From the NCBI GenBank assembly GCA_043810695.1, contig JBDRNV010000002.1, positions 5,015 through 69,014 on the forward strand: DNA of 64,000 bases, given 5' to 3'. The DNA is from Nanobdellota archaeon (GTDB taxonomy: Archaea > Nanobdellota > Nanobdellia > Pacearchaeales > GW2011-AR1). Every line of letters starts with the position of its first letter. The stretch's first letter is position 1. Below, piece by piece: positions 6,565 to 62,300 of the stretch. The notes under the pieces were generated by a model that did no database searches, had not been told where the DNA came from, and was given only the letters and a program-made list of their open reading frames with translations. Both the position numbers and the translations under genes were made by a program.

Positions 6565-6573
6565 TCAAAGCCA

Positions 6574-9583: not shown

Positions 9584-9592
9584 GAAATCTAA

Positions 9593-22248: not shown

Positions 22249-23049
22249 ATGGAAACCGAGAATCTGGGATATGTTAAAGGATTGGGAGAAATTCATAGAA
22301 TTAATGCTCCATTTGTAGTGCAATTGGGAGCTTTTAGAGAAATAGGAATAAAGGCACCTGTAAGCGTAAGAGATACTTCTTTAATAAGGCTCAGCGGAAA
22401 ATCCACAGAAGGAACAAGGACATGTCACGCTCCTGTTTACCTTAAGAATTCTCCTACAATAGTTGCGAGAATGTCTCCTTTGGTAAGAAATTTAGGAATG
22501 GCACAAAAAGCAGTGAATGCTCACAAAAGCAGTGAATATCCTGTTTTTGGTAGCTCGATTTATGCCCAGTGGGAAAAGATTGCAAAACAGGACAAGGGAA
22601 AGAAGCCTGAGAAAAGAAGGGCAATCATACTTCCTGAAAGAAAAGATTTTGACATACATAGGGATTCAGACGAAGCAGAATTTTTCTGGCAGGACAAAAG
22701 AAAAGAATATTTTAAAAGATTTGTTTCAGCAGATAAAGTCATAGCGTATCAAATCGACCCAGAAACGGTTGATTCTCAAGATGGAGCAATTGTGAATTAT
22801 CTCTGGTTCGACGATCCCGAGGATGGTTCTTACTTGTACCTTAGGAGCAGGAGCTTGTACTATGACGACAGGGCTTTCGGGGTGTTGGAGAAAACCAGCG
22901 AAGCTGGTTTGCAAAAAATTTCAGGAAATTTGGTCAGGCATTATACTCAAAGAGAAGCAAAAAAATATACTAATATTCTTCAGGATGTTATGTCTGGAAA
23001 AACAGGAACTTCAAAATTAGAAAAAGTGCTTAAGCATTTTAAAAAATAA
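22249..23049 (+). CDS. DGR-type variable (target) protein candidate
   Basis: Contains the variable repeat 22801-22872 near its C-terminus; locally higher G+C by eye than neighbours. Confidence 0.6.
   Translation: METENLGYVKGLGEIHRINAPFVVQLGAFREIGIKAPVSVRDTSLIRLSGKSTEGTRTCHAPVYLKNSPTIVARMSPLVRNLGMAQKAVNAHKSSEYPVFGSSIYAQWEKIAKQDKGKKPEKRRAIILPERKDFDIHRDSDEAEFFWQDKRKEYFKRFVSADKVIAYQIDPETVDSQDGAIVNYLWFDDPEDGSYLYLRSRSLYYDDRAFGVLEKTSEAGLQKISGNLVRHYTQREAKKYTNILQDVMSGKTGTSKLEKVLKHFKK
22801..22872 (+). other. variable repeat (VR) of a diversity-generating-retroelement-like pair
   Basis: 72-nt ungapped match to 23310-23381; 10 of 11 mismatches lie at adenines of the other copy. Confidence 0.75.
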
Positions 23050-23309
23050 AAACAGAAAGCAATTTAAACATAAGTTTCTTTTTTTATCTGCCTTGACTCT
23101 TATTTGAAGCATATGTACAAAAACATATGCTGGTGAGAATAATAGAAAGGCCACACGCCAGTTTATTAAGGCATTATTCAAGTTTATTTTAAGTCATAAA
23201 ATTCAGAAGCGACTTGCGAGAAGCTTCGGTGCGCAAATTAAATTTTGCTGTGTGCAGGCAAGATTCCTGACGTGAAAATTATTCATGAGATAAATTGGCT
23301 ACAAAAAGT

Positions 23310-32377: not shown

Positions 32378-34873
32378 TTAAGTTGCAAGACGTAAGAGAG
32401 GAAATGTCTTAATATATTTACAAGAACCATCTAACATACATGTAAAACCGCTTTGACAACTACAAATATAACATTTATTGATCAATATTCCTGTGTCTGT
32501 ACAATATTTTGGACTTGTTGTAGAACATCTATTAAAAGGTGTACCATCTAAACAAGAACCAGTAATTATACTAAAGATTCCTTCTTGATTAGACTCTGCA
32601 TATCTACTTTCATTATCAAAAAACTTGCAGTTCCAGGTATAAGTAGTGTTGCTAGTTGGATTAAAGCTCTTATTAAATGTTTGGACACTAAATTTTCCGC
32701 TAATTATTCTAGTCTCGCTTAAAACAGGACCTATACCAGGAGTGTCTACCCATAATTCAACCTTGTTTAAATTTTTATCATCACTAGCATTACACTTAAA
32801 AAAGATTTTCAACGGATTCATAAAGCTCTGGTTCAATGGTGAAATTAGTTTAACTATTGGTGGTTCATTAGGTTCAATACTCTGGCAATTTAGATTATCG
32901 CTTGAAACATATGGACCTAATGCTCCATTAGAATCATCACAATCTTTTTCTGCTTTACAAAATAAAGGACATGTATCTGGTTTTTCATCTGTGATTCCCC
33001 AATTGCAATATTCATCATTATCATTATCCACGCATCTTATTTCATTAGTGAATCCTTCTGGCCAATAATTAGAATCTGTAGGAGGAGTATAAGGCCCAAT
33101 ATTTAATGTACCATCTGCTAAATTACCAAGAGATAATGCTATTTTTGTATATCCATTTTCTCCCCATTCACTGCCCCAACTATTTTTAAATATCCAGTAA
33201 TTATCTCCTTGACTTGGAGTATATTCAGATATTTCTGTAAAATAACCATTATTTGATGCACTGCATTCTAATTCGCCTTCAATTAAAGGTTGTTTAGGCT
33301 GACATTGGTTGTTAATACACATTTCATTAATTCCACAAGGTGAATAATAATCCCAGTTTATTGTCCATTCATTATTACCAGGCGATAATTCCTGACAAAA
33401 ATAAGTATAAACACCGCTATAATTCCAATCTTCAAGATATGTATCTACACACACATTCATAGATGCTCCAAGATTACTGCACACTTTATTCATACATTCT
33501 TTTGTTGCATTGCATAATTGATCAAAACTGCAGTTTTGAATAGTTTTCCAGTCACTTCTTCCATTATATCCAACTAATACCATTGCATGATTCCAAGATT
33601 TAATATCGCTGAATAATGGGCCTTTTTCTATTAACAATTTTTTGAATTCTTCTTCTGAAGGATCAATTGTTTGTTTTGGACAAGTAGGAGTACCAAAAGA
33701 ACTCATAAATTTATAATCGTGGAAATCAGAATTTTTCCAAATTCTATTTTGCCAATCACTACATATATATTCTGTATTACAATAATCTGGATTAATATCT
33801 CTTTGAACATATGGATCACATGCTTCATCAGAAATACCATGCTGGCTTATTACACAAGAAGTATAACCAGGATAACACATATTATCTCCTGAACATTCAG
33901 GATAAACTCCAAAGCTCATACCTATTGGTAATGTTGTTTCACTAATACAATCTACTAATTGCTGCTCAGAAAGATCTGTATCAACATGTTGATTATTATA
34001 AACATTGATTTGTGATTCTATAGCACCTATTGTAGCAAATGCCCAACAAGTTCCTGCACTACCTTGATTTTTTATAGATGTTAACCAATTTTCACCATGT
34101 ACATTTCTCCAATCCCATGAATCTGGAACAATTATATCTGACGTAGATTCTATTGATTGTTCACCATCTGATTTTAGAACAAAGATTCCTCCTTTATAAT
34201 ATTCAAATCCTTGAAGATTAGGTAAATATTCAGGAACTATCCCCTCTTGATTTCTAAACAAATTTTTCTTCTCCCCATAACTTAATTTAGATACAGAAGT
34301 TTCTCCAGCAATCCAAGAATTTTGAATACTATTAATTGCATCAATTTTAAATTTGATTTGGCTTTCTAATAATTCTTCTGCAGACATTATTGTATTAATT
34401 TTTTTATCAGCAGTCAAATAATTAATAGAATTCAAAACAAGTTTAGCATTTTCAATTTGAATCTTTAATTTTTTTGGAGCTATTGAATTTAAAATACAAG
34501 TTTCTGAACAGAGATTATTAATACTAAATAATTTTCTAGGTTCAATAGCAGGATAAGATTCAAAAATCAGATATTCGTGATTATTTTCATCAACTAAAAT
34601 AATTCGAACAAGACTATAATCAGAATAAAATTCAATATTAGCATTTAGAGATAAAGATTTTATATCTGAATTAATATTTAAACAAATAATTTTATTTGAA
34701 AGGGCTATCTGATTGATATTTAATGCAGACAAAGAATCACTAGTTGGAATATTAAAAATTGAAGAAGTTTTGCTAATGTCATCTTCAACAGAAGAAGATA
34801 CTATAGCTTGAACATAAATCAAATTAAAAATAATAAAAAATACAGGCAAAATATAAATTGATTTAATTTCCAT
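32378..34873 (-). CDS. secreted papain-like (C1) cysteine protease with Cys-rich and Ig-like C-terminal domains
   Basis: Signal peptide; '[17 protein letters not shown]' catalytic Cys motif; 'HAMVLVGY' His motif; '[12 protein letters not shown]'. Confidence 0.75.
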
Positions 34874-40442: not shown

Positions 40443-41729
40443 TCAGTTCTTCTTCTTAACAATCTCTGTGCATATTCCAGCTGCAACTGTCTGTCCTGCA
40501 TCTCTTACTGCAAATCTGCTCATGAACGGATTTTCCTTTTGTGTTTCAAGACAGAGATTTCCTTGAGGCCTTATTCTTACTTTTGCGCTGTCTCCGTTTT
40601 TCAGGAAATCAGGGCTTTTCTTTATTGATTCACCGCTTCTAGGGTCAATCTGGTCAATTAATTCAACAAATTGGCATGGAACCTGCGCTGTGTGAACATG
40701 GAATACAGGAGTGTACCCTTTAGCCAAAACAGACTGATGATTTATTACAGTGATTGTTGCAATAAATTCCTCAACAATATTTGATGGTTTTGCAGCATCA
40801 CATATAACATCTCCTCTTGCAATATCTTTTTTTCCAACTCCACGAATGTTTATACCAACATTATCTCCTGCATCTGCCTGTGAAAGAGTTTCATGATGCA
40901 TTTCTATTGTTTTAACCTCTCCTTCAATTCCTTTTCCAGTTCTTCCAGGCAATACTATAACTTTTTGTCCTGTCTTCATAATTCCTGTTTCAATCTTTCC
41001 AACAGGCACTGTTCCTATTCCTGTAATTTCATAAACATCTTGTACAGGCATTCTCAAGGGCAATTCAGTAGGCATTTTTGGCTGAGGGAACTGATCAAAC
41101 TGCTCTTGAATTGTTGGTCCTTTGTACCACGCCATTTTATCTGATTTTTTTGAAACATTATCTCCTTTTAATCCAGAGCAAGCAATAAATGTAGTTGTAT
41201 CTGAATTTATTCCCACACCCTGAAGTAATTTACCTACTTCTTCTTTAGTCTTATTGAATTTGTCTTCACTATATTCAACAGCATCCATTTTACTGATTGC
41301 AACTGCAACATTTTTCACACCCATTGTTCTAAGAAGCCATAAATGTTCTGTTGTCTGAAGCTGTACACCATGTGTAGCAGCAATAACCAAGAAAGCAGCA
41401 TCTGCCTGGCTAGCTCCTGTAATCATGTTTTTAACAAAGTCCCTGTGCCCTGGAGCGTCAATTATTGTTATTTGGTATTTCTGTGTTAATATTTTTCGAT
41501 AAGCAAGATCAATTGTAACTCCTCTTTCTCTTTCCTCTTTGATTTTATCCATTATATAAGCGAATTCAAAACCAATTTTTCCGTGTTTTTCAGTTTCCTG
41601 TTTTAATTTTACCATTTCCTGCTCTGAAACAAGACCTGTATCAAAAAGAAGTCTTCCTACTATTGTCGATTTTCCTGCATCGACATGCCCAACGAAGATA
41701 ACATTCATATTTGGTTTTTCTTTTGCCAT
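40443..41729 (-). CDS. tuf: translation elongation factor aEF-1alpha
   Basis: 'VGHVDAGKST', 'DAPGHRDF', 'NKMD'-type 'SKMD'; tracked start 41738 is TTG, ATG (MAKEKP) at 41729. Confidence 0.9.
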   Translation of the reverse strand: MAKEKPNMNVIFVGHVDAGKSTIVGRLLFDTGLVSEQEMVKLKQETEKHGKIGFEFAYIMDKIKEERERGVTIDLAYRKILTQKYQITIIDAPGHRDFVKNMITGASQADAAFLVIAATHGVQLQTTEHLWLLRTMGVKNVAVAISKMDAVEYSEDKFNKTKEEVGKLLQGVGINSDTTTFIACSGLKGDNVSKKSDKMAWYKGPTIQEQFDQFPQPKMPTELPLRMPVQDVYEITGIGTVPVGKIETGIMKTGQKVIVLPGRTGKGIEGEVKTIEMHHETLSQADAGDNVGINIRGVGKKDIARGDVICDAAKPSNIVEEFIATITVINHQSVLAKGYTPVFHVHTAQVPCQFVELIDQIDPRSGESIKKSPDFLKNGDSAKVRIRPQGNLCLETQKENPFMSRFAVRDAGQTVAAGICTEIVKKKN

Positions 41730-41764
41730 TTTTCTCAATGAAAATTTTAGTAATTATGTAAAAA

Positions 41765-42439: not shown

Positions 42440-43216
42440 ATGGTTAATAATATGTTTAAGAAAATTAAAGGAGGGCTGATTTTTATATTTATAACTTTAT
42501 TTTTATTTGTAGTTTTATTAACAAATTTAACTACTGCTCAAGATGTTAATTATTCAAACTTTAAAGTGTTATATGATATTAGGGAGGATGTATCCTGGCA
42601 AAATGGGCAATTTATAGACATAGTCTTAACCAACGGCTCAATAATACTTTTTGATGCTTCACTTGATGAATATGAAATTGAAGCCTGTAAATTAACTTTA
42701 ACAAATGTCCAAAAAACAACAAGAATTATAGGTGTTTTTTCTTTAGAATGTTTTGATCAAAATGCTCGACCATTTTCATTAACAAAGGGAACTAATAGGG
42801 AAATAGATGTTAATTATGATGATTTAAGTGATATAGTCTTATATTTTAAAAAAATGGATATAAGAACTGATAAAGTCACAATTAGCATTAGAAAAGCTGT
42901 TGAACTCGAGAAAGACAACAGCGGCCTTATACTTACACTAATTATAATCGCAACATTAATTTTAATTGGCTTAGATTCTTATTATTATATTAAAATTAAT
43001 AAAAATCATTATAATAAAATTAAAGAAATGCTTATACAATTAGAGAATCATTTATCTTTAAAAGATTATGAAAAAGCTAAATCTTTGCGTGATGAAATGA
43101 ATAGTCTATATAAAGGACTAACAAGAAAACAGAAAAAAAACTTTAATCAACAAATTTCAGAATTATTTAAGCAATTTAAAAATGAAGAAGATATTATTAG
43201 CAAAAGTAAATTGTAA
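42440..43216 (+). CDS. membrane protein, unknown
   Basis: N-terminal signal/TM, mid TM, C-terminal coiled coil. Confidence 0.35.
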   Translation: MVNNMFKKIKGGLIFIFITLFLFVVLLTNLTTAQDVNYSNFKVLYDIREDVSWQNGQFIDIVLTNGSIILFDASLDEYEIEACKLTLTNVQKTTRIIGVFSLECFDQNARPFSLTKGTNREIDVNYDDLSDIVLYFKKMDIRTDKVTISIRKAVELEKDNSGLILTLIIIATLILIGLDSYYYIKINKNHYNKIKEMLIQLENHLSLKDYEKAKSLRDEMNSLYKGLTRKQKKNFNQQISELFKQFKNEEDIISKSKL

Positions 43217-43800: not shown

Positions 43801-46800
43801 TTAAAGATACTTTTTCATAACCTGGTTTAATAAATTAATCCTCTGTTTTATTAATCCGGCTTTTTTGTCATCCCAATTAAACCTTAAATTTTTTATTAGT
43901 TGTTCTATTCTAATCAATTCACTTCTTAATTCTAACACAATTTTATTTTCACCTAATTTTTTCTTAACTTCTTTATAATTTTTCAAAATTTCATTATAAG
44001 GCTTTTCCACTTCTACATATTTCGCTCTCTCTACATTTGCCTCATTAATTGATTTTTCTATTACTTCTTCTTTAATCAACTTTGGTCTAGTCATGCTAAT
44101 ATTAGGATATTTAGCTATTATTGGCTGTAATGCAGAATCAATATTGTTTAAAACAGCTTCTAATTTTACAAAATCACCACTAATTAAAATATCACAAGCT
44201 TTTTTATAATTATATTCTAAATCTTCGTAATTAAGAATAGACCCTCTTAAATCTATATTGTATTGTCTTAAAACATCTAATTGATATCTTATATCTTCAA
44301 CTTTATTACTGTAATAATTATACCTCTTTAATTCCTCATCACTTAATCTCTTTGTTGCATGCAGTATTGGCCTGACAACCATAAAATAAGGCCTGCCTTT
44401 ATTATATTCTGCATTGACAAACATCCCTGTACCAACAGGAGCCCTTACCAATGCGCCAGAGATTTTTTCACCAAAATTATCCTTAATTCTATTTAAGTCA
44501 TTTTCATAACGAGTACGCATTTGAATTTCTGTAGAAATATTAGCTTTTATTTCACCAATAAAGTCGCTTGAAACCTGCGATATTAAAACCATTCCAATTC
44601 CCCATTTTCTGAACTCTCTTATACCTCTTTCAATTTGTACAAATCCTTTTCCTTTACCTCCAAATTTCTCAAGCAATCTATGGACTTCATCATAAACTAA
44701 AAGTACTTTTAATTTATCGCTTTCTGTAGGTTGTAATGCGAAAATTTCACGAACAGTATTAGCAATAAATAAATCCATAGCATCTGGTTCAAGTTTGTTT
44801 AGACAATAAATTGTTATACTGCCTTCTTTTCCTTCTTTATTTTTTTCTCTTAATAAATCTCTAACATTTATTTTTTCTCTTGGATCTTCAATCATCTCAA
44901 TTTTTCCTGAAAACGATCTTGCAGCATTGTTAGTTAATCCAAATTCTGCATATTGATTAAGCATTTTTGGTTCTTGGCACTTTTTTAAAAACCCTGTCCA
45001 TTGTGCAGAAGGATCAAATACAATAACATGAGTGCCCCTCATTAAAGCTCCTTCACAAATTGCTTGTGCGCAGATAGTTTTTCCGCTGCCTGTTGAACCA
45101 GATACAATAGTGTGTAATTTCAAAGATTCTAAATTAACATAGGCTTTTTTATCTGATTCTGCAATTTTTCCAATTATGGCGCTTCTTAAACCAGGTTTTG
45201 GTAATAGATTATAATCAATGTCAACTTTATATTTTAAAGCTTCTTTTCTTTTTTTCTCCATTAGTTTTCTGTAATAGATTATTCCGCTTGTTGTTAAACC
45301 TGCAAGTATTAAGAATAAAGCATAATAAGTTAATTTTATTCCTAAAAACTTTCGAGTTTTTAAGAAATCTAGAGCAACCTGAAAAATATTTTTTTTAATC
45401 TCAAATGTATCAATAGCATCGGTTAATTTATCTCCATCATAAATAACTACTGCTTCTATGAGATATTTTCCTTTAGTTAGAAGAGATAATGGTTGTATTG
45501 TTTTTTGAGTTGAACTTGTTGAATAAAACTCTGCAAAATCAGAATCTTGTGCTACTACCTCTCCTTTATAATTTCTAACTGTATAATCAATTAAAGCCTC
45601 TATTTTTGTCATTTTTCCTAAATTAATCAGTTGTGTTGTTAATAATATGCCTCCATCCTGTGTTATTGTAAGAAATTGAACATTAGCATTTAAGAGCTGG
45701 TCCTCTTCTGTTAATTCTTCTATATTCAGAGTAACTGGAAATTTAACTTTTTTATTTAAATTAATAGCTTCATTAACAGCATCAATAACCATGTTGCCCA
45801 CATATGTTTTAATTTCAACATTGCTAGGAATTTTAACAAATATTTTTACTATTTCTGTTCCAAATCCTGCCAGATTAATTTCTTTTTTTTCAAAATCAAT
45901 AAATTCAGCAACACCACCATCATCACTAATTTTAAATTTAATGTTTTCAGTAATTTTGTTTATAAATTTAAGAGTGTATTCTCTGTTTTCTCCTGGATGA
46001 AGTGTTGCTGTCATCAACGTGGTTTCTATTCTAAACTCATCTGTTTCATAAATGCCTTTTTCTGTTAAACCTTCACCTGTTTCATTATCAAGACCAAAGC
46101 ATCCAGGACATACTTCTGTTAATGCAAATGCTCCAATTTTTTCATCTTTGTCGAAATCTACAGAAGCTGTATAAATTGTTTCATTTAATATCATTCCACT
46201 TTCTTGATCATAACCAATCCAATCACTATCAACACAAATTTTATTTTCAAAATCCCAGCTAGGACAATGAAGAATCATTAAATTGTTAATATCAACCTTC
46301 AAATTTTCGACTAAATTTCTATAATTAAAACTAATTGTCTTAGGATAAAGTTGATTATTATTAGAAATAACAGCTAAGGTTTTTACTTTTATTGGTTCTA
46401 TGTCCACTGGAAGCTCTTGTGAAATAGCAGGGCTTTCTCCAAATGCTGTAATAAAACCAGTTATATCCTGATCAAAAAGAACATCATGATAAGCAACACT
46501 ATCACCTGATAATTCTGGATTTTCTGTATTTTTAATAATTACATTATATTCTCCAGAATCAATATCTTTTGAATAATCTCCATTTGGCGGTGTGCTTGCA
46601 AATGAAAAAGATTTTCCTTGTATTAATGAATTAATATCAAAACTTGCAATCTTGCCTTTTTCTAAATAATCAACGTCTTTTATACTACCACTAAATTTAA
46701 TTTTATCAGCAAATGTAAATTCAAATGTTCTTTCAGCAGAATTACTATTTTCATCTACAGCTGAGAAAACTAATTTATGTTTTTTATCTTTATCAACAAG

Positions 46801-49050
46801 TGTTGTTGACAGTTCTTCAGATTGCCACACATCTACAAATTTAGCTTGATCTGTATCATAATAAGTATCATGGTTAAAACTAACTGGTATAGAAGTTCCA
46901 TTTGGAAAGGTTAATTGTCCACTACCAGAAGTTGTTCCAGTTACATCTCTTGTTGTAACAGTTATTTCAATAAACTTAATTAAATTATCTTGTTTTTGCC
47001 AATCACCTGTATCTAAAAAAGGATCAATAATAGGAGGTGTTATATCTTTATATTTAATTACTTCACGAACAACTTTTTCTAAATCAAGAATAGTCCCATC
47101 TGCATTATATGTTAATTTAATTCTTGCATCATATTTTCTACCATCTTCTAAATTTCTAGATTTTTCACCAAGATAAGGATAACATTTTATTATGGGAGAT
47201 GATTTATAAGTTAAATCTTGTCCGTAAAAACAAGATTCCTCATTACCTGCTTTATCTATTATTAAAATATTACTAAAATTAGTTATATTAGAAGTTTTAT
47301 CAACTGTGCCTAAATATGCTTTTGTTTCTATATTAATGGGCTGTGGATTATTTTTATCATATTCCTCATATGGTGGTAAAGGTGTTAAAGTTAAATTTAA
47401 ATCAAGAACTCTTAAAGTAAAAGAAACTGTTTTTTCATATGTTGAATAGCAAACACTTGTTCCAAAAAAACAAGGAAGAATTTTTATATTAATTAAATTA
47501 TTTCCAGAGGATAGATTTTTAGAAGTAATTTCTAGAGTTTTTTTACCACCGTTATTACTAACAGTAATTTTATTATAATTATAATCTAGAAAACTCCTCC
47601 CCCCTGAGAAATTAAAATCAAAAGCCATCTCGCCATTATTAGTTATTGTTATACCTGGTAATCTTGCTTCTGAATCTGTTAACACATATTGGTCTGGATA
47701 AGGATTAGGACTAAAACTAAAATCAATTTGTGGAATTAAATTAACATTCAATACAACGCTTGCTCCAGGTATATCAACACCTGATTTTTTAGCTTTAAAT
47801 GTTATTGTACATTGCGGATTTGTAATACCTGATAAACTTCCTGTAAACTTTACAGTTAATGGAAATTGTTGAGTTCCTGATAATTCCCTATCTTCTAAAT
47901 TAAAAGTTTCTAAACCACTAATCTCAAAATTTAAATTTCTACATTTTTCTTCCACAATATATTCCAATTCAACATCTGTTAATTTATTAATCATTGTTGC
48001 TATTAAATTTGTACGTAAGATAACACTTTTTCCCACCCCTGATTTTAAATCTAAGGGGTTATTATCCAAGGTAAGTGAAAGTGTATATGTATTTTGATTA
48101 ACTTCTTTTTGTCCTAATCCCCCATCTTTACAATTTGAATTTACGTAACCAGCTCTACCTCCAGAAACATCAATTAAACTTTTTATTGTATCATTACTTT
48201 TACTAGATTCAATATAATTTATTATAACAAAACCACCACTACCTCCACCACTACAAACACCATCAAAACCAGAATCATATTGTCCATTACCTCCTTTAAC
48301 ACTAATAAAACCTGATATTGCTAATTTAGATGTAGCTATACTTATTTTACCACCACTACCACCACCTGCAACATGATAACCCTCTTTTCCTCCATTTCCT
48401 CCATTAGCTAGAATTGAACAACCTAAATCAATATTTACTTCTGACGCAGAAATTTCTATTTTTCCTCCACCATTTCCCCCACTTGGTTGATTTAAATAAA
48501 GTGAACAACTACTTAATCTTCTAGGTTCTCCACCTCCTCTACCATAAGAACAATAATTTTGAATACCTCCTTTACTTCCAGGAAAAATATCTACATCAGA
48601 TGTACAGTGCCAACAACCATTTCCTCCATCATTAACAAAACCAGAACCACCACAAGCCCGCGCAGTACTACAACAATTTTCAGCACCACAACCATCTATT
48701 CGTGCAACTCCTCCTTTGTAACCCTTACCACTAGCATCTATTTTAGAATTATAAGAAAGACTAAGTTTGTTAACATATATTTTAAAGTTTCCTTCTAAAT
48801 TACCACCTTGTAAATTAAGCTCTGCATTTGGCGCATCAATAATACATTCACCAGGTGTATCTCCAAGATATTCTGTAGAAACTGTTACACCTGATTTAAT
48901 ATTTATTATGGTTGTACCTGCTGGAATAAATAATTTACCAGAACAAGTGGTAGTTGAAACAGTATAAGTCTGCGCACTAACATTTTGCACAGAAGCAACT
49001 AAAAAAATTATAAAACTTATTAGAAATATAAAAATTATTTTATTTTTCAT
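43801..49050 (-). CDS. giant fusion protein: secreted Gly-rich beta-helix + Ig-like ectodomain, one TM helix, cytoplasmic HerA/FtsK-type P-loop ATPase
   Basis: Signal peptide ..VQNVSAQ; GGNGG/GGGSGG repeats; TM 'YYALFLILAGLTTSGIIYY' (~45271-45330); Walker A 'GSTGSGKT' (~45076-45099); Walker B 'LLVYDEVHRL'; 'REFRKWGIGMVLISQ' HerA-like. Confidence 0.7.
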   Translation of the reverse strand: MKNKIIFIFLISFIIFLVASVQNVSAQTYTVSTTTCSGKLFIPAGTTIINIKSGVTVSTEYLGDTPGECIIDAPNAELNLQGGNLEGNFKIYVNKLSLSYNSKIDASGKGYKGGVARIDGCGAENCCSTARACGGSGFVNDGGNGCWHCTSDVDIFPGSKGGIQNYCSYGRGGGEPRRLSSCSLYLNQPSGGNGGGKIEISASEVNIDLGCSILANGGNGGKEGYHVAGGGSGGKISIATSKLAISGFISVKGGNGQYDSGFDGVCSGGGSGGFVIINYIESSKSNDTIKSLIDVSGGRAGYVNSNCKDGGLGQKEVNQNTYTLSLTLDNNPLDLKSGVGKSVILRTNLIATMINKLTDVELEYIVEEKCRNLNFEISGLETFNLEDRELSGTQQFPLTVKFTGSLSGITNPQCTITFKAKKSGVDIPGASVVLNVNLIPQIDFSFSPNPYPDQYVLTDSEARLPGITITNNGEMAFDFNFSGGRSFLDYNYNKITVSNNGGKKTLEITSKNLSSGNNLINIKILPCFFGTSVCYSTYEKTVSFTLRVLDLNLTLTPLPPYEEYDKNNPQPINIETKAYLGTVDKTSNITNFSNILIIDKAGNEESCFYGQDLTYKSSPIIKCYPYLGEKSRNLEDGRKYDARIKLTYNADGTILDLEKVVREVIKYKDITPPIIDPFLDTGDWQKQDNLIKFIEITVTTRDVTGTTSGSGQLTFPNGTSIPVSFNHDTYYDTDQAKFVDVWQSEELSTTLVDKDKKHKLVFSAVDENSNSAERTFEFTFADKIKFSGSIKDVDYLEKGKIASFDINSLIQGKSFSFASTPPNGDYSKDIDSGEYNVIIKNTENPELSGDSVAYHDVLFDQDITGFITAFGESPAISQELPVDIEPIKVKTLAVISNNNQLYPKTISFNYRNLVENLKVDINNLMILHCPSWDFENKICVDSDWIGYDQESGMILNETIYTASVDFDKDEKIGAFALTEVCPGCFGLDNETGEGLTEKGIYETDEFRIETTLMTATLHPGENREYTLKFINKITENIKFKISDDGGVAEFIDFEKKEINLAGFGTEIVKIFVKIPSNVEIKTYVGNMVIDAVNEAINLNKKVKFPVTLNIEELTEEDQLLNANVQFLTITQDGGILLTTQLINLGKMTKIEALIDYTVRNYKGEVVAQDSDFAEFYSTSSTQKTIQPLSLLTKGKYLIEAVVIYDGDKLTDAIDTFEIKKNIFQVALDFLKTRKFLGIKLTYYALFLILAGLTTSGIIYYRKLMEKKRKEALKYKVDIDYNLLPKPGLRSAIIGKIAESDKKAYVNLESLKLHTIVSGSTGSGKTICAQAICEGALMRGTHVIVFDPSAQWTGFLKKCQEPKMLNQYAEFGLTNNAARSFSGKIEMIEDPREKINVRDLLREKNKEGKEGSITIYCLNKLEPDAMDLFIANTVREIFALQPTESDKLKVLLVYDEVHRLLEKFGGKGKGFVQIERGIREFRKWGIGMVLISQVSSDFIGEIKANISTEIQMRTRYENDLNRIKDNFGEKISGALVRAPVGTGMFVNAEYNKGRPYFMVVRPILHATKRLSDEELKRYNYYSNKVEDIRYQLDVLRQYNIDLRGSILNYEDLEYNYKKACDILISGDFVKLEAVLNNIDSALQPIIAKYPNISMTRPKLIKEEVIEKSINEANVERAKYVEVEKPYNEILKNYKEVKKKLGENKIVLELRSELIRIEQLIKNLRFNWDDKKAGLIKQRINLLNQVMKKYL

Positions 49051-49185
49051 GAATCATCCTCTTTTTAAATAAGATTATAACTAAAATATACTCGATTAAT
49101 TTAAATAGTTTTGGTTTTTATATACAATTAGATTAACAAAACTTAAAAACTTAAATATACATCTTGCTATAAAGGTTAAATAAAG

Positions 49186-51723
49186 ATGCCAAATAAAAAA
49201 AAGAGTGGAAAAATAAGAGTTTTAAATAATATAACAAAAAAAAATCAAGATACTAAAACAAAATCAAAAATTCCTCTAATTTTATTATTGTTATTTTTTG
49301 GTGCTATTATAATCTTATTATTTTATATTCAGTATAAACCAAAAATGACAGGATTTGCTGTATGTGTTGTAGATGGTTTTTGTAATAGCCCAATTGAAGA
49401 TTATTTTAACTGTCCAACAGATTGTTTACCTGCATGTCCTAATGCAGTATGTGAAGTTCCAGCAGAATACAGTTGTGGTGGTGCAGCCTGTGTTGCAGAT
49501 TGCGGTGCTTGTGGTACAATAGCACTCTCTATTACTTATCCAAGTAATAATCAGTATGTTCCTTCTTCTTCAATAACCGTTACAGGAACTTCAAATAATA
49601 CAAATGAGGTAAGAATTAAACTTAATTTAGACCCTGATAGTCGAGTTTGTTTTGGAGCTGTTGGAACTTGTAACTCTTGGAATAAAATTTTATTTTTGAA
49701 TCTTGGAAGTAATACCATAGAAGTTTCCGCTAGTAACGGAGGTGAACTAATACCTTATCTTTCAAGAACAGTATATTATGATCCAACACCCCCAACAATT
49801 ACTATAAATTCACCTTCAAATGCATCTAATGTAAGTTCTAGTCCAATAAATATTAATGGTGTAGCTAGTGATAATGTTAATCTAAATAAAGTTGAATTAA
49901 GAGTTAATGGTAAAACATGGGAATTAGCTTCTGGAACAACTTATTGGAATAGAGGAATGTATTTAGATAGTGGAATTAATTATATAGAAGCAAGAGCAAC
50001 AGATGGTGCTGGAAATACTCAAATCGCAGCTATAACTCTTTACTATAATGTTCCACCAATTCCAACAAATCTTATTGCAAACACAATATCAACAACACAA
50101 ATAAATTTAAGTTGGACAGATGTAGATTCTGAATTAGATTATTATATTGAAAGATCTTCAGATGGAATTAATTTTGCTCTAATTGATGTTGTTAATGCAA
50201 ATATTATCTCTTATTCAAGTACAGGCTTAACAGTTAATACACAATACTGGTATAGAATAAAAGCTCATAATAATGCAGGAAATTCTTCTTATTCAGGTAT
50301 CGCTACAGCCACAACTTTTGCAGTACCTCCTCCTTCTGTAACTCTAATTACTCCCTTAGATAATAAAATATCTCAATCTCCAGTAAGTTTTTCTTGTAGT
50401 TCTAGCAACACCGACTTAGTTAGTATGTCTTTGTATGGACAATGGAACACAGGATGGCATTTAGAAGAAACTCAAAGTTGTACTCTTGGACAAGCTTGTT
50501 CAATTAATTTTATTAATAAACCAATTTCCGACGGAACTTATAATTGGAACTGTCAAGCATGTACATTAGAAGTTTGTGGATTTGCTATTTTTAATAGAAC
50601 AATTATAATAGACACAACAAATCCAGTTGTATCTTTTATTGATCCAACACCTTTAAATGATGAATTTGTAACTAGAACCTGGATTAATATGTATGTTTCT
50701 GTTACAGAATTAAATGAAGCAAATATAACTTTTAATTTATATGATTCAAATTCAATACGAATAAATTCAACTACTTTTTTTACTTCTTTTGATAGAAGTA
50801 TAGCTTTTATTAATTTAAGTTATGGAAATTATAGTTATGATGTGGTTGTAATTGATAGAGCAAATAATATTGGTAGTACAGAAAGAAGAATTATACGTCT
50901 GCAAGAACCAGTTCCAGTTCCAGGTGCTCCTAACATAACTTTTGTTTATCCAACACCTGATAATTTTAAATCACAATCTGAAACAAGTGCTATTATTAAT
51001 GTAACTGTAAATGATACTGTTAGTGAAATAAAAAATTGTACATTAAGATGGAATAATGCTAATTTTTCGATGACTAAAGTTGGTTCTGGTTTAAATGTGA
51101 GTTGTTATCTTCAAAAAACTTCTTTATTGCCTGGAAGTTATATTTACTCTGTTTATTCTACAAATTCGCAAAATATCACAGGAATGAGCGAAGAAAGACT
51201 TTTGCATGTTGTAGGTGAGGATATAACCACAGGAGAACCTGTATTTGAATTGCTTACTACAGTTATTTCTGGAAGTAATTTTGTTAACGAGAGTATTTTA
51301 TCTTTAATTGAAATTAGTACAGGAACTTCAGAACCAATTACTGTTGGATTAAGTTATATTATAATGGACGAAAATGAAATGCCATTTTATAAAGAAAATG
51401 ACAATATTAAAATAACAGGTGGCTTAATAATAAATAAATGGTTTACAGCTCCAGCTGAAAATGGAAATTATAGGCTAAGAGTTATTTTAGATTATAAAAA
51501 TCTAGAAAAAGAATCAGAAGATAGATTTAGTGTTGGTTCTAGAATTATACCAAAAATAGAACCTAGCATTTGGAATGTTATAATATCAGTAATTATTATT
51601 ATTGCAATTGTTTTTGGATTAAGATTATTAGGTCCAATCGGTGCATTGCATGAGAAAAAGAAAAAATCAAATTCATCTGAGAATAATAAATCAGATACTT
51701 CTTCAGAGAAAAAATCTTCCTAA
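49186..51723 (+). CDS. bitopic cell-surface protein with Cys-rich, Ig-like and fibronectin-III domains
   Basis: N-terminal TM, 'CNSPIEDYFNCPTDCLPACPNAVC', FN3 'INLSWTDVDSELDYYIERSSDG..YWYRIKAHN', C-terminal TM. Confidence 0.65.
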   Translation: MPNKKKSGKIRVLNNITKKNQDTKTKSKIPLILLLLFFGAIIILLFYIQYKPKMTGFAVCVVDGFCNSPIEDYFNCPTDCLPACPNAVCEVPAEYSCGGAACVADCGACGTIALSITYPSNNQYVPSSSITVTGTSNNTNEVRIKLNLDPDSRVCFGAVGTCNSWNKILFLNLGSNTIEVSASNGGELIPYLSRTVYYDPTPPTITINSPSNASNVSSSPININGVASDNVNLNKVELRVNGKTWELASGTTYWNRGMYLDSGINYIEARATDGAGNTQIAAITLYYNVPPIPTNLIANTISTTQINLSWTDVDSELDYYIERSSDGINFALIDVVNANIISYSSTGLTVNTQYWYRIKAHNNAGNSSYSGIATATTFAVPPPSVTLITPLDNKISQSPVSFSCSSSNTDLVSMSLYGQWNTGWHLEETQSCTLGQACSINFINKPISDGTYNWNCQACTLEVCGFAIFNRTIIIDTTNPVVSFIDPTPLNDEFVTRTWINMYVSVTELNEANITFNLYDSNSIRINSTTFFTSFDRSIAFINLSYGNYSYDVVVIDRANNIGSTERRIIRLQEPVPVPGAPNITFVYPTPDNFKSQSETSAIINVTVNDTVSEIKNCTLRWNNANFSMTKVGSGLNVSCYLQKTSLLPGSYIYSVYSTNSQNITGMSEERLLHVVGEDITTGEPVFELLTTVISGSNFVNESILSLIEISTGTSEPITVGLSYIIMDENEMPFYKENDNIKITGGLIINKWFTAPAENGNYRLRVILDYKNLEKESEDRFSVGSRIIPKIEPSIWNVIISVIIIIAIVFGLRLLGPIGALHEKKKKSNSSENNKSDTSSEKKSS

Positions 51724-53379: not shown

Positions 53380-55569
53380 TTACTGATTCTCGCTCAAACC
53401 CTTACGTTGCCTTATCTTTCTTACAATGTCTGGCTGAAGGCTTGCAGGAACTTTTTCAAACAGCTGGTCTAACAAAGACGATGTTCCTCTTCCTTCTGTC
53501 GCGCTTCTTAAATCACTGCTCCACCCAATCATTTCTGCGACAGGAAGTTTTGCTTTCATGTCTGCTTGTGTACCTTCTTGTCTTACTTCAAGCATCTGTC
53601 CTCTTTTTCCTCCAACTAATTTTGTAACAGCACTTAAGAATTTATCAGGCATTTCTATAAGATAAATCTGTATTGGTTCAAAAAGATAGGCATTTGCTTT
53701 TTTCATTGCTTCTACAATTGCTTCTCTTACAGCAGGATAAACCTGTGCAGGCCCTCTGTGAATTGCATCTTCGTGAAGTCTTGTATCTACAAGTGAAACC
53801 CTAAGTTTTATACAGGGTTCTCTTGCTAAAGGTCCCTGGTTAATAACCATTTCAAATGCATCAAGAACCATTTCAATTACTTCTCCTATATGAACCTCTC
53901 CTCTTGTTTCATCAAGAAAAATATTTCCTTTGTAAATATCTCTTACATTTCGTATTGTATCACCAGACCATCCTAATTTTGAAAGAACATTTGCAATTTC
54001 CTCATTTTTTTTCTTAATTCTTCCTTCTCTTAATTCTCCGCTTTTTATTGCCTTGTATACTTCATCTTCAAGAGGCTCAACTTTCATATAAAAGCTGTTA
54101 TGTTTATTAGGGCTTCTTCCTTCTATTTCAGGAGATTCTCGACCTATTGTTTCTCTGTAAACTATGATTGGAGAAGAGGTTTTAACATCAAGTCCTTTTT
54201 CTGTTTTAATTCTGTTTTCTATAATCTCAAGATGAAGTTCTCCCATTCCAGACATAAGGCTCTCTCCTGTTTGCTCGTTTATTTCTATTTTTATGGAAGG
54301 GTCTTCTTTTGCAACTTTTTTTAGAATCTCAACAAGCTTTGGAAGGTCAGATGTTTTTGTAACTTCAATTGCTTTTGTTATAACTGGTTCAAAAATATGT
54401 TTGAGTTCTTCAAAAGAAGTTTCTGGTTCAATTGTTACTGTTTCTCCTGCTTCACCAGTAACACCTGCTATTGCCAAAACATTTCCACATCCTATTTCTT
54501 CAAGCTGTTCAGGCTTTATTCCATTATAAATAAATACCTGCTGTATTTTCTGTCTTTTTTTTGCAAGATTTAGATAGACTTCCATCCCTTGTTTTAATGT
54601 TCCTGAGAATAATCTTCCAGCTGAAATCTCTTTTCCAGACTTTGGGTCTATTACAATTCTTGTTATAACAAATGCTGGTTTTCCTTTTGGATCGCAGTTT
54701 ATAAGGGATTTTCCAAAATCACTATTTAAATCTCCTCTCCATATTTTTGGAATTCGATATTTTTGTGCTTCCAGAGGGCTTGGAAGGTGCTTAACAACCA
54801 TATCCAGAAGAACTTCATAAAGAGGAGCATTTTTCCAGCACCATTCTTTTCTTTCAGCATCTGACATTTCATAAAGATTGAAAATATCTTTAAAAGTTAT
54901 TTTTTTCTTTTGCATAAAAGGAACAGAAAGCGCCCAGTTTTCTCTTGCAGAACCAAAAGCAACGCTTCCGTCTTTTATATCAACTTCCCACTTTTTCTTG
55001 AATTCAGATTCTGCAATATTATTAATTAATTTATTGAAGTCTTCATATATTTTTATGAATCTTTGCTGCATCTGCTCTGGCGTTAGTTTAAGCTCTTTAA
55101 TTAGCCTGTCTACTTTATTGATGAACAAAACAGGTTGTACCCTTTCTCTTAATGCTTGTTTTATAACAGTCTCTGTCTGAGGCATTATTCCTTCAACAGC
55201 ACATACAAGAACAATTGTTCCATCAATAGCCCTCATCGCTCTTGTAACATTTCCAGAGAAATCCACATGTCCTGGTGTATCAATAAGATTAATCAAATAC
55301 TCATCTCCATGAAATTCATGAACCATTGAAACGTTTGCAGCATCAACTGTCAATAATCTCTCCTGTTCGTCTGCATGCTGCCAGGTTGCCATACCTGCTT
55401 CCAAATCTCCTGCAGATTTTACAGCCATAAATCCAGAAGCAGCGAGAAGATTATCTGTCATTGCCGTCTTGCCATGATGAATATGTGCAGAAGTTGCAAT
55501 ATTACGAATATATTTTTGTTCTCTGCTAAGTCTCTGAATTTTCTTGAACTGTGTTTCTTTCTCTACCAT
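53380..55569 (-). CDS. fusA: translation elongation factor aEF-2
   Basis: 'SAHIHHGKTA', 'DTPGHVDF', diphthamide loop 'HEDAIHRGPAQV'. Confidence 0.9.
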   Translation of the reverse strand: MVEKETQFKKIQRLSREQKYIRNIATSAHIHHGKTAMTDNLLAASGFMAVKSAGDLEAGMATWQHADEQERLLTVDAANVSMVHEFHGDEYLINLIDTPGHVDFSGNVTRAMRAIDGTIVLVCAVEGIMPQTETVIKQALRERVQPVLFINKVDRLIKELKLTPEQMQQRFIKIYEDFNKLINNIAESEFKKKWEVDIKDGSVAFGSARENWALSVPFMQKKKITFKDIFNLYEMSDAERKEWCWKNAPLYEVLLDMVVKHLPSPLEAQKYRIPKIWRGDLNSDFGKSLINCDPKGKPAFVITRIVIDPKSGKEISAGRLFSGTLKQGMEVYLNLAKKRQKIQQVFIYNGIKPEQLEEIGCGNVLAIAGVTGEAGETVTIEPETSFEELKHIFEPVITKAIEVTKTSDLPKLVEILKKVAKEDPSIKIEINEQTGESLMSGMGELHLEIIENRIKTEKGLDVKTSSPIIVYRETIGRESPEIEGRSPNKHNSFYMKVEPLEDEVYKAIKSGELREGRIKKKNEEIANVLSKLGWSGDTIRNVRDIYKGNIFLDETRGEVHIGEVIEMVLDAFEMVINQGPLAREPCIKLRVSLVDTRLHEDAIHRGPAQVYPAVREAIVEAMKKANAYLFEPIQIYLIEMPDKFLSAVTKLVGGKRGQMLEVRQEGTQADMKAKLPVAEMIGWSSDLRSATEGRGTSSLLDQLFEKVPASLQPDIVRKIRQRKGLSENQ

Positions 55570-59310: not shown

Positions 59311-62300
59311 TTATTTATCTATCTCATCTATAATCTCTTTTTTTGCAGCCTTTTTCTCAGAATCCTTCTTTGTTAATGGACCAACTACTTTAACAAAAAG
59401 TCCTGGAAGTCCTGTTCCTATAGGGACAGGCTGATTTAATATTACATTTTCTATAACACTTGTGAGCTGATCTTTGCTTCCTTTTATTGTTGCATTTACA
59501 AACTGCTTTACAGGTGTTTCGAAAGTTGCTCGTGCAAGTATCGATGATTTTTGTGCAATAATTCCTATTCTAGTTACCCCCTTTACTTCTCCTGTGTTTG
59601 TCATGGCATCTGCAACAAACTTTAAATGTCTTTTATCTATATTCAAGCCTTGAACATTCAAAACATCTTGAATTTCATTTATTATAAGCTGTCTTGCAGC
59701 CTCTATCCCAAATACAATTGCAACTTCATGGAGATCATTTGAAATTAATAGATTTGGGTCAACTTCTTTCATCTCAAGCATTTTCTTGAGATTTGTTCCA
59801 AGTGTCATTATAATATAATCTCTATCCTTTTTAACTATGAGAACTTGTCTTATTCCTTTGACACCTGAAATTCTTGTCTTCTTGAGTTTTTCCTTAAGTT
59901 GATAGATTTCTTTAAAGCTCATTTCAGATGCATTTAGAACTATTAAATCTCCTTTTTCTTTTGCACTAAATCCTAGCTCCTGAAGTCTTTCAACAATTGT
60001 TTTTAGAGAAACATGTGTTTGCCTAATTCCCTCCTTGTCTATTTTTATTTCTATTTTTTTGTTGCTAAAATCAAGGTCAATTTCAGAGGCAATGTCTTTT
60101 ATTGTTATCTCTTTAATCTTTTCAGCAAAAACTCTGGAATCATTTTCATTATTATATTCTTTTTTCAGATATACTTCCATCTTTGGAGATGAGGGTTTTT
60201 TTCTGGCATCAAAAATTTCTATAAGTCTTGGAAGACCCTGAGTTACCTGCATCTCAGAAATACCAGCGAAGTGGAAAGTTCTTAAGACCATTTGCGTTGA
60301 AGGCTCTCCAAAACTTTGTGCAGTTATTACTCCTATAGCCTCCCCAGGTTCTAATTCTCCATTTATATGAAGCTTTGAAACATCTAAACCATCGTCTCCG
60401 TATATAAACTGGATAATGTTGTTGTTGCTGTCTCTTATTGTTCCGTCATATTCTTTTCTCAAATCCTGCAAGGCATTTGCAAGCCTTCTGTACAAATATC
60501 CAGACTTAGGAGTTCTTAATGCAGTATCCATAAGTGTTGCTCTTCCAGTCATTGCTCCGAAGAAAAATTCATCAGGCCTTAGCCCTTTTATAAATGGACT
60601 TCGTATGAATCCTTTTGCTCTAGGAGATAAATCTCCTTCTTTGAAACAAGAAAGTGTTCTGTTTACATAACCTAAATCAATTCTTTTTCCTTCTAAATCC
60701 TGCTGCCCTACACAGCAAGCCATTTGAGTTATATTAAGCATGTTCCCTCCTCCTCCTGATCTTATCATATGAGTTACAGGATTTTCTTCTGGGAATTCTT
60801 TCTTTACAACCTCTCCTATTTTTGTTCTTATTTCATTCAAAACTTTTAGTATTTTGATTTCCCTTGATTCTTCTTTACTTTTTCCCTGTATTATTTCAAG
60901 TGTTCCTTTATTGTACGCGTCTATTATTTCTTTTGTTTTTTCTTCTGCCTTTTTTATTATTTCTTCACCGCTTTCTATTACTTTTTGTTCTACATCAAGA
61001 TCTCCCAAAGAAATAGTAATTCCGGTATCTGTAAGATAATTTTTCCCAAGATTAAATGCTTTTTTGATAGTTTCAAAAGAAGTTGTTCTTCCGAATTTCT
61101 TATCAATTTCTTTTATTAATAATCCATCTTCATCACCAAAAAGTCCTTTATCTATAATTCCTTTGATTATTTGCCCTTCGTGTATTTTCACCTTGTCTCT
61201 TATAAAGTTTATTTTTGGAAGTATTTCTGAGAAAATTTCTGTTCCCAAAACTGTTTTTTTGGAAAACTGTTTATTAACTCCTGATTTGTAAAGAATCTGA
61301 TTTGCATCTTCTCTTGAAAATTCCTTTAATCCAAGAAGATATCCTCCTGTTATTGCGTCGCTTATGCATCCTACCCAGTTTGTATTATTCTTTGGAGAAA
61401 AAAGATTTTTTTTGACTTCAAGTATAACTTTTGCTTCAGCTCTTGCTTCCTCTGTCTGAGGGCTGTGAATGTTCATTTCATCACCGTCAAAATCAGCGTT
61501 GTATGGTGTTGCAACAGCAGGATGCAGCCTAAATGTTCTTCCTGTCAGAACTTTTACATAATGAGCCATAAGACTTCCTTTATGAAGACTTGGATGTCTA
61601 TTGAATAAAACAATATCTCCATTTTCAAGATGTCTTTCAACTTTATAACCAGGTGTAAGCTCATTAATTACTTCTTCTTTCAATTCATTAGTTATCTTTT
61701 TTCTTTTTCCGTCAGGTCGTATAACATAATTTGCTCCAGGATATTCAGAACCGCTTTGTATAAGTTTTTTTAATCTCTCAATATTTAAGTCATTGACTGT
61801 TTCTGCAACAGTAACTGTTTTTGCAATTTCATAAGGAACTCCTACTTCATTAATTTCTATTGATGGATCAGGCGAGATAACTGTTCTTCCTGAATAATTT
61901 ACTCTTTTACCAGCAAGATTTTTTCTTATTCTTCCTTCTTTTCCTTTAATTCTTTCTGAAATTGTTTTTAGTGGCTGCCCGCTTCTATGTCTTGCAGGAG
62001 GAATTCTTGCAACACTATTATCAAAAAAAGTTGTAATATGAAACTGAAGCAAATCCCACAAATCTTCTATAATGACTTCAGGAGCTCCTGCATTAAGATT
62101 TTCCCATAGTCTTTGATTTGCTCTTATAATATCTGAAAGCTTGTGCGTTAAATCATCTTCGCTTCTTTCACCAGATTCAAGTATGATGCTTGGTCTTACA
62201 GTAACAGGAGGAACAAGAAGAGCTGTCAGAACAGCCCATTCAGGCCTGAAGTTCTTTGGATTTATTCCTATTTTTACAAGCTCTTCGTCCGGAATATTTA

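Follow-up and report, generated by a model that had tools for sequence, protein, structure and literature searches.

A SPEARE-family surface protein of a Nanobdellota archaeon carries a HerA-clade ATPase: a candidate contact-dependent translocation motor

Introduction

DPANN archaea depend on physical contact with their hosts, and to our knowledge nobody has identified the molecules that move material between the two cells. Could one giant gene belong to the answer? The question is raised by a 64,000-nucleotide stretch of DNA from a Nanobdellota archaeon (NCBI GenBank assembly GCA_043810695.1, contig JBDRNV010000002.1, positions 5,015 to 69,014 of the forward strand; hereafter the window), in which one open reading frame (ORF) of 1749 amino acids (aa) joins a large adhesin-like ectodomain, through a single transmembrane (TM) helix, to a cytoplasmic P-loop ATPase. 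An earlier note, made from the letters of this stretch, had suggested a contact-dependent uptake or transfer device that it did not recognise as a named system.

SPEARE-type proteins are the most conspicuous candidates for such a role, and they have been discussed almost only for Nanohaloarchaeota, with conflicting domain assignments. They were described as mostly extracytoplasmic proteins with one TM helix near the C-terminus, in which conservation is highest in an intracellular domain that carries type III restriction enzyme, P-loop or DUF87 annotations (Hamm et al. 2019, PMC6642349). The same study noted SPEARE-like sequences in Woesearchaeota, Aenigmarchaeota, Micrarchaeota and Altiarchaeales, reported versions as short as 655-717 aa, and showed by mass spectrometry that a SPEARE protein is expressed in culture; its gel fractions hint that the ectodomain may be cleaved from the TM-ATPase part. 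A later re-reading made the intracellular domain a VirB4/TraG-like ATPase with a coiled coil behind it and proposed a secretion 'straw'; it also disputed the protease and restriction-endonuclease assignments of the founding members (PMC10266531). The window gene itself is an ordinary family member; it is the function of the family that is the important question.

Results

Relationship of the 1749-aa protein to SPEARE proteins

We compared the 1749-aa protein by BLASTP with the 5998-aa SPEARE sequence of Ca. Nanohaloarchaeum antarcticus (NAR1_1133) printed in the supplementary information of PMC6642349. Residues 975-1749 aligned with the C-terminal 569 aa of this reference at 35% identity over 543 aa (E 5e-108); the alignment covers the second membrane-proximal beta-sandwich (Ig2), the TM helix and the motor, reaches ~55% identity in the motor core, and includes the common block LxVYDEVHRLLEKFGGxGKGxxQxERGxREFRKWGxGMxLxSQV. 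Furthermore, the Gly-rich N-terminal module matched the Gly-rich N-terminus of the reference (E 2e-5). Because both the C-terminal alignment and the Gly-rich module match, we regard the gene as a new, smaller SPEARE member, an assignment that we consider virtually certain. The architecture is therefore that of a named system, contrary to the earlier note, whose idea of contact-dependent uptake or transfer is essentially the published SPEARE hypothesis (PMC6642349, PMC10266531). The named SPEARE proteins were not among the matches of a homology search that started from a nanohaloarchaeal fragment (L004), and published cryo-electron tomography work on DPANN attachment organelles and nanotubes names no such ATPase.

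The protein has in common with SPEARE proteins a signal peptide, an adhesin-like ectodomain, a single TM helix on the C-terminal side, a cytoplasmic P-loop ATPase with the DUF87/ResIII signature, and a helical or coiled-coil end. It is, however, much shorter than the named members (NAR1_1133 of Ca. Nanohaloarchaeum antarcticus, 5998 aa; that of Ca. Nanopetramus SG9; SVXNc_0300, 9409 aa), with one copy of the Gly-rich module against about eight and no detected laminin-G, PQQ-propeller or 'toxin-like' regions. A Pfam scan of the protein detected no laminin-G domain, and Pfam and NCBIfam scans detected no protease or nuclease domain; the absence of the latter two does not exclude SPEARE membership, because these assignments are disputed in the founders themselves (PMC10266531). 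The setting differs as well: the window is AT-rich, with a GC content of ~30%, and its genome is Woesearchaeota/Pacearchaeota-like rather than that of a halophile, the gene lacks the VirB4-like second ATPase found downstream in SVXNc, and it has conserved partners of its own, with a type IV pilus locus adjoining its orthologues.

Reality of the fusion and breadth of the family

A surface region joined to a cytoplasmic ATPase may be suspected of being two genes that a frameshift, or an error of assembly, has fused at the TM region, a danger that the earlier note had raised. An identical 1749-aa protein is called in an independent ENA assembly, and the full architecture recurs in orthologues of 1691, 1742 and 1816 aa (44% identity across 96% of the length). 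The fusion is retained in three orthologue groups as well as in hundreds of clusters of the wider family; moreover, the SPEARE alignment runs unbroken through Ig2, TM helix and ATPase. The one observation that favours an artefact comes from metagenome locus L080, in which a same-frame stop separates the ectodomain from the TM-plus-ATPase part. We reject the artefact on the independent identical ORF, the orthologues and the unbroken alignment, and give it negligible probability; the note's single real ORF stands.

Locus L080 itself encodes a 2608-aa ectodomain ORF (3035-10861) with both membrane-proximal domains, followed by a 445-aa ATPase ORF (10865-12202); it may be naturally split, a pseudogene or the product of a sequencing error.

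With the C-terminal 525 aa as query, HMMER found 813 clusters (50% identity) in the full library at E<=1e-3 and 340 at E<=1e-30. Among the best 150 matches, the ATPase match falls within the C-terminal part of proteins 452-6253 aa long. A TM helix lies just upstream of Walker A in 73 of the 81 sequences in which a strict Walker A was located, and an N-terminal hydrophobic segment is present in 81 sequences of the same survey. Family members carry the NCBI labels DUF87, DUF853 or ATP-binding protein, and those named by NCBI come from Woesearchaeota, Pacearchaeota, Nanoarchaeota/Nanobdellota and Aenigmarchaeota, as well as from Hadarchaeales and Altiarchaeota bins.

The commonest form measures only ~780 aa and consists of signal peptide, two beta-sandwiches, TM helix, ATPase and tail. 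Ordered by motor similarity, giant and short forms are interspersed, which indicates that ectodomains were added repeatedly. Among the four orthologues, identity is 30-36% in the ectodomain, with 32-34% for its variable stretch at residues 321-1000, 41-55% in the membrane-proximal pair, 66-70% in the motor core and 38-44% in the tail. These results show that the motor is under strong purifying selection and that the ectodomain is hypervariable: the family core is the two membrane-proximal beta-sandwiches, TM helix, ATPase and helical tail, to which a hypervariable distal ectodomain is attached.

The locus is flanked by housekeeping genes: aEF1A (40443-41738), a PAP2 phosphatase, a HAD hydrolase, aEF2 (53380-55569), ribosomal protein S7 and RpoA. 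Together with relatives in Woesearchaeota, Pacearchaeota and Nanohaloarchaeota, this context (aEF1A, aEF2, S7, RpoA) bears out the archaeal, DPANN-like setting that had been proposed. A viral or mobile-element origin was ruled out by these surroundings, by a search of IMG/VR viral contigs that gave no match to the ATPase family, and by PHROG matches of the 1749-aa protein that are generic terminase-type or ATPase P-loop similarity only.

A HerA-clade motor without the HAS barrel

In the 1749-aa protein, the Pfam DUF87/HerA central domain (36.9 bits) and HerA_C (33.2 bits) each passed the gathering score, FtsK_SpoIIIE, AAA_10 and ResIII fell below theirs, and PADLOC HerA models reached 9.6e-18. 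A phmmer search of the PDB matched HerA structures 8wiv (9e-10) and 4d2i over Walker B and the R-x-x-R-K-x-G motif; in the ranking of phmmer and family-profile searches HerA came first (8wiv, 4d2i, 9c1m, 9x1l), followed weakly by VirD4-type IcmO and FtsK. We modelled residues 975-1749 as a monomer with AlphaFold2 (AF2) from an alignment of 81 sequences. The model (predicted local distance difference test, pLDDT, 87.4) comprises two beta-sandwiches, a long TM helix, a RecA-like core and a C-terminal helical bundle, and its motor matched HerA structures in Foldseek, with the coupling protein TcpA also among the fold matches. The above-threshold Pfam domains and the HerA matches in PDB and Foldseek carry the ATPase well past its P-loop, a point on which the earlier note had made its reading depend.

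The catalytic elements are intact. Walker A (G-x-x-G-x-G-K), the Walker B Asp with its following His, R-E-F-R-K-W-G and an S-Q sensor are invariant in the 81-sequence alignment, and the Glu that follows the Walker B Asp is almost always kept among the 81 homologues; REFRKWGIGMVLISQ starts at residue 1478 of the 1749-aa protein. The AF2 model places Walker A only ~45 residues after the TM helix, which leaves the protein without the HAS barrel that canonical HerA has. The motor is thus a distinct HAS-less branch of the HerA clade with its catalytic motifs intact. It has in common with HerA the RecA-like core, the Walker motifs and the R-x-x-R-K-x-G motif, with 4d2i, 8wiv, 8xau and 9x1m as the closest solved structures, but differs in lacking the HAS barrel, in being membrane-tethered and in having no NurA or effector partner. 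The anti-phage HerA equivalog scored 22.7 bits (cut-off 800) and the repair-HerA equivalogs were unmatched in the window protein, and HerA equivalogs reached at most 37.7 bits against cut-offs of 800-970 in ten other members. The best NCBIfam profile was instead CedD, which ranked top for the 1749-aa protein and for 7 of 10 diverse members and second in the other three; TraD and HerA profiles come next.

The first SPEARE proposal saw in the intracellular domain a module that degrades DNA in the manner of a type III restriction enzyme (PMC6642349), and Pfam ResIII indeed matches residues 1309-1462 at 20.5 bits, the same signature as in the supplementary information of that paper. This score lies below the cut-off of 22.5, and what the profile models is a helicase-type P-loop rather than a nuclease; DUF87 and HerA_C outscore it and exceed their own cut-offs, and the fold matches HerA. 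We reject the restriction-enzyme label because ResIII is sub-threshold and no nuclease domain was found, a conclusion also drawn in PMC10266531; with the HerA fold, this effectively refutes the reading, to which we assign next to no probability.

A HerA-based defence or sensor system, in which the ectodomain senses viruses or foreign cells and a HerA ring activates an effector, would agree with the PADLOC score and with the presence of Sir2-HerA and DUF4297-HerA defence complexes among the closest structures. However, the PADLOC matches reflect generic HerA similarity and the gene context is one of housekeeping. Effector genes of the Sir2, DUF4297, NurA-like or any other type neither adjoin the gene in the window nor recur across the 83 locus groups, and a Pfam scan of the window neighbours detected no NurA. 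With generic matches and no effector partner, we reject this reading as highly improbable.

In the secretion 'straw' proposed for nanohaloarchaeal homologues (PMC10266531), an Ig-rich ectodomain binds the host and a VirB4/TraG-like ATPase exports protein effectors into it, in the manner of a type IV secretion system (T4SS). Weak TraD, TraC and VirB4 profile matches, together with TcpA among the Foldseek matches, are in its favour. Set against these, the nearest relatives in sequence and structure are HerA and CedD, not VirB4/TraG; the VirB4 and TraD matches are confined to the P-loop and lie far below their cut-offs (for the window protein, TraC 21 bits, cut-off 567; TraD 30 bits, cut-off 366); and a VirB4 N-terminal domain is missing, with only ~45 aa between the TM helix and Walker A. 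Because the TraC, TraD and VirB4 matches are tiny and P-loop only, the motor is no bona fide VirB4/TraG, just as it is no restriction enzyme, and this label is rejected as well.

Ectodomain and membrane topology

The N-terminus MKNKIIFIFLISFIIFLVASVQNVSAQ (residues 1-27) is signal-peptide-like. Besides this segment, residues 1240-1258 form the sole hydrophobic segment and are directly followed by RKLMEKKRKE. These data show that the 1749-aa protein is a type I membrane protein, and the anatomy described earlier (signal peptide, Gly-rich repeats, large beta-rich ectodomain, one TM helix, cytoplasmic HerA/FtsK-superfamily ATPase) was recovered in full at the positions given for it.

The Gly-rich motifs follow the pattern GG(N/G)(G/S)GG (GGNGGGK at residue 191, GGNGGK at 217, GGGSGGK at 229 and GGGSGGF at 268). 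In the AF2 model of the ectodomain, pLDDT is 80-90 across model residues 170-250, part of this module, for which a beta-solenoid or beta-helix, as the earlier note had suggested, is plausible and not proven; an AgmC_N profile gave a weak match. The whole ectodomain model is all-beta at low confidence (pLDDT 62), and Foldseek related it to titin, cadherin, complement MG domains and S-layer protein folds; at this level of confidence, the model is consistent with the all-beta, Ig-like character that had been claimed. The membrane-proximal sandwiches, in contrast to the ectodomain as a whole, were modelled with a pLDDT of ~85-95 and matched WxLIP, RbmA and PapD-like folds in Foldseek. In phmmer searches with the ectodomain, many family members match solely within these two domains (residues 1001-1225).

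Conserved partners and gene neighbourhoods

The giant gene is divergently paired, across a 135-bp spacer that presumably holds both promoters, with a gene for an 845-aa bitopic protein. The Cys-rich module, Ig-like repeats and FN3 domain previously read in this protein were confirmed, and the pairing is kept in four orthologue groups. The 845-aa protein has an N-terminal hydrophobic segment at residues 25-52 and is 29-35% identical to the divergent neighbours in loci L001 and L005. BLASTP between the membrane-proximal regions of the 1749-aa and 845-aa proteins gave no similarity; the family profile of the second membrane-proximal domain, by comparison, matches the 845-aa protein just before its C-terminal TM helix (Table 1), as well as its orthologues (E 3e-11). 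Profile-level evidence thus suggests that the two proteins have a membrane-proximal domain in common.

On the other side, the convergent 258-aa bitopic protein is 38% identical to a 230-aa gene product at the same position in L005. Giant gene, divergent FN3 or FN3-related bitopic protein and convergent ~230-aa bitopic protein form a conserved trio in L001, L005 and L008, and both partners are kept in all four orthologue groups (4/4). A type IV pilus locus with two class III signal-peptide pilins, two T2SSF genes and an intein-containing T2SSE gene adjoins the trio in L001 and L005; in L008, pilins lie next to the trio, after which the contig ends. No type IV pilus genes were found in the window by tblastn and Pfam.

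We clustered neighbourhoods over 83 non-redundant loci, most of them from a metagenome scan. In the wider family, the next gene downstream, on the same strand, encodes a ~430-aa cytoplasmic coiled-coil protein in 56 of the 61 informative groups (for example L021:6962-8239). Its N-terminus is Pro-rich, its coiled coil long and its tail very basic; it is absent from the window clade, and PDB and Pfam searches assigned it to no recognisable family, with spurious coiled-coil matches only. Large FN3/Ig bitopic proteins lie nearby in 25 groups, and small helical proteins (~110-190 aa) immediately downstream in many family loci. A helical-hairpin domain common to the ATPase tail and the small neighbours was considered and dropped, as a hidden Markov model (HMM) of the tail, run on the neighbouring proteins, detected none of them. 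ATPase-less paralogues with both membrane-proximal domains and a TM helix stand directly upstream of short forms in five groups, which suggests that these paralogues and the FN3 partner may co-assemble with ATPase proteins into mixed surface assemblies.

The neighbourhoods bear on the secretion straw in two ways. The small helical proteins downstream and the coiled-coil protein could be its substrates; on the other hand, no other T4SS genes occur in the window or the orthologous loci, and the downstream second VirB4-like ATPase of SVXNc is missing. Taken with the profile evidence, we consider an effector straw quite unlikely.

They also raise a motor that transports nothing, in which a hexamer clusters six adhesin arms and the adhesin is tensioned, assembled or released as ATP hydrolysis reshapes a cytoplasmic coiled-coil partner. 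The ~430-aa protein found downstream in 56 of 61 locus groups of the wider family could be such a partner, the window clade keeps a bitopic protein with a cytoplasmic coiled coil in its stead, no channel partner was found in the 83 locus groups, the ATPase-less paralogues and the FN3 partner have membrane-proximal domains in common with the family, and the Gly-rich module weakly resembles the gliding protein AgmC. Against it, the coiled-coil partner belongs to no recognisable family and is missing from the window clade, the ATPase-tail HMM matches no neighbouring protein, and we know of no FtsK-HerA superfamily member that works in this way. We regard a mechanical or organising role as unlikely.

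Further observations were made on these partners. The ATPase-less paralogues (~631 aa; L011:6119-8014, L078:574-2472, L075:4784-6778) carry Ig-like domains behind a signal peptide, and their helical tail is short; in L011/L012 the published paralogue gene call overlaps the ATPase gene. Inteins with a LAGLIDADG domain interrupt two genes beside the orthologues (L005:17724-20753; L001:2-1741), namely those of the type IV pilus ATPase (T2SSE) and of a metallo-beta-lactamase-fold protein, the L005/L008 counterpart of which has RNase J-type domains. The motif M-T-G-F-x-(V/I) follows the N-terminal hydrophobic segment in both the 845-aa protein (window 49258-49360) and a 1148-aa protein (L065:3778-7224), and may be a common processing or sorting signal of the two bitopic proteins.

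Features of the locus and of the window

The coordinates of the locus are collected in Table 1.

Table 1 Features of the SPEARE-family locus (window coordinates; residues refer to the protein named)
Feature	Position	Strand	Evidence
SPEARE-family gene, 1749 aa: signal peptide, ectodomain, one TM helix, HerA-clade ATPase, helical tail	43801..49050	-	ORF/translation, homology
Sec-type signal peptide, residues 1-27	48970..49050	-	hydropathy 2.49, VSA-Q cleavage-like site
Gly-rich, Cys-rich N-terminal module, residues 28-320	48091..48969	-	20.5% Gly, 13 Cys
Variable beta-rich ectodomain, residues 321-1000, predicted string of Ig-like sandwiches	46051..48090	-	low-confidence AF2 model
Two membrane-proximal beta-sandwich domains, residues 1001-1225, family-wide	45376..46050	-	phmmer, AF2, Foldseek
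Single TM helix, residues 1240-1258, then basic cytoplasmic stretch	45277..45333	-	hydropathy; AF2 helix, model residues 266-297
HerA-clade P-loop ATPase core, residues 1291-1560	44371..45180	-	Pfam, PADLOC, PDB, Foldseek
Walker A GSTGSGKT, residue 1318	45076-45099	-	sequence
Walker B LLVYDEVH, residue 1450	44680-44703	-	sequence
REFRKWG motif	44575-44619	-	sequence
C-terminal helical tail, residues 1561-1749	43804..44370	-	AF2 long helices, model residues 597-775
Divergent intergenic region	49051..49185	.	135 bp, AT-rich, from sequence
845-aa bitopic FN3/Ig surface protein, divergent partner	49186..51723	+	Pfam, hydropathy, homology
845-aa protein, Cys-rich module, 10 Cys within residues 60-109	49363-49512	+	Cys positions
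845-aa protein, Big_7/Glucodextran_B, residues 203-286	49792-50043	+	Pfam
845-aa protein, fn3, residues 293-374	50062-50307	+	Pfam
845-aa protein, SPEARE-type membrane-proximal domain, residues 714-783	51325-51534	+	family Ig2 HMM, E 5.3e-7
845-aa protein, C-terminal TM helix, hydrophobic residues 790-822	51553-51651	+	hydropathy
258-aa bitopic protein: signal peptide, small ectodomain, TM helix, cytoplasmic coiled coil	42440..43216	+	convergent neighbour, homology

Elsewhere in the window, two further candidate surface or secreted proteins were noted: an 831-aa papain-family (C1) peptidase (32378-34873, minus strand) and a 414-aa protein that weakly matches FixG_C and Kre9-like Ig folds (29549-30793, minus strand). 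An Rfam RT-16 RNA (RF03019) lies at 23091-23307 on the plus strand (76 bits, gathering score 50), flanked by an unannotated 266-aa ORF (22249-23049) and an SMC/Rad50-like gene (23578-26442); despite the name of the motif, no reverse transcriptase is found near it. A 138-nt Rfam tRNA match at 20450-20587 (minus strand, 45.9 bits), unreported by ARAGORN, is probably an intron-containing archaeal tRNA. RNA polymerase subunit A, usually split into A' and A'' in archaea, is encoded with Rpb1 domains 1-5 in one 1161-aa ORF (59311-62796, minus strand).

Discussion

What, then, might this protein do at the cell surface? Our preferred reading is a contact-dependent motor for polymer translocation, with DNA as the most likely substrate, to which we give a tentative probability of roughly 0.35-0.4. 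The ectodomain would bind a partner cell or surface; the HerA-clade ATPase, by comparison with the FtsK-HerA superfamily, would form a hexameric ring on the cytoplasmic side, flush with the membrane, and so gather six TM helices with their six ectodomains into a single surface complex, with which the FN3 protein and the 258-aa protein would probably co-assemble. The ring would then spend ATP to move a polymer at the contact site, most likely DNA by analogy with CedB/CedD, VirD4 and FtsK, in a direction that leans towards import, and the type IV pilus encoded beside orthologous genes may help. We prefer this reading because of the CedD/TraD affinity, the membrane-flush geometry, and the pilus adjacency of the orthologues, which parallels the pairing of Ups pili with Ced in Sulfolobales (PMC11868833). 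The mechanism is an inference from homology and topology, because no conserved channel partner, relaxase, T4SS genes or NurA were found in the neighbourhoods searched.

CedB and CedD, the DNA-import ATPases of the crenarchaeal Ced system, act alongside type IV (Ups) pili in DNA exchange between cells in contact (PMC11868833). The window protein resembles them as a membrane-anchored HerA-clade ATPase with CedD as its best NCBIfam profile. It differs in lacking a VirB4-NTD-like (N-terminal) domain between TM helix and ATPase, in carrying a huge extracellular N-terminal region where they have a simple N-terminal anchor, and in having no CedA-like polytopic partner among the 83 locus groups of its family. 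VirD4/TraD/TrwB and FtsK/SpoIIIE are likewise ring ATPases of the same superfamily that N-terminal TM helices hold against the membrane and that translocate DNA at membranes or across them. Of the window protein, however, only the P-loop region matches the coupling proteins (TrwB_AAD_bind, 23.4 bits over 43 residues), and FtsK_SpoIIIE scores 15 bits against a cut-off of 24, with the gamma domain not matched. Furthermore, it has one TM helix against two to four, neither an all-alpha nor a gamma domain, and no conjugation or division context.

Several observations weigh against a translocation motor. The CedD match scores 36.7 bits (residues 1255-1358) in the window protein and 33-53 bits in 10 others, where the cut-off is 600, and the similarity spans only ~60 residues around Walker A. 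HerA rings also serve as non-transport scaffolds in defence systems. A DNA-sized pore made of six single TM helices is unlikely, and the 83 locus groups revealed no polytopic (CedA/VirB6-like) partner that is conserved beside the gene; nor were a relaxase, a DNA-binding domain or, in the window and the orthologous loci, VirB-type/T4SS genes detected. The pilus cluster is adjacent only in the sub-clade of the window protein, and not in the window itself. Finally, the family reaches into the Hadarchaeales and Altiarchaeota bins, lineages that are not known as episymbionts.

A bolder form of the translocation reading, which we hold to be doubtful, is that the SPEARE core and its bitopic or coiled-coil partners would make up a self-contained, archaea-specific, contact-dependent translocation machine distinct from both T4SS and Ced, in which the six adhesin arms would themselves be the conduit, while the ring, working with type IV pili, would bring in DNA from the host or some other polymer.

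What is new here is the great breadth of the family, its compact conserved core of ~780 aa, its HerA-clade motor and its recurrent partners, along with the correction of the 'restriction enzyme' and 'VirB4' labels. The compact core and the partners offer experimentalists a small, tractable construct and concrete candidates. Were the self-contained machine to prove true, it would be the long-sought motor of material transfer between DPANN archaea and their hosts.

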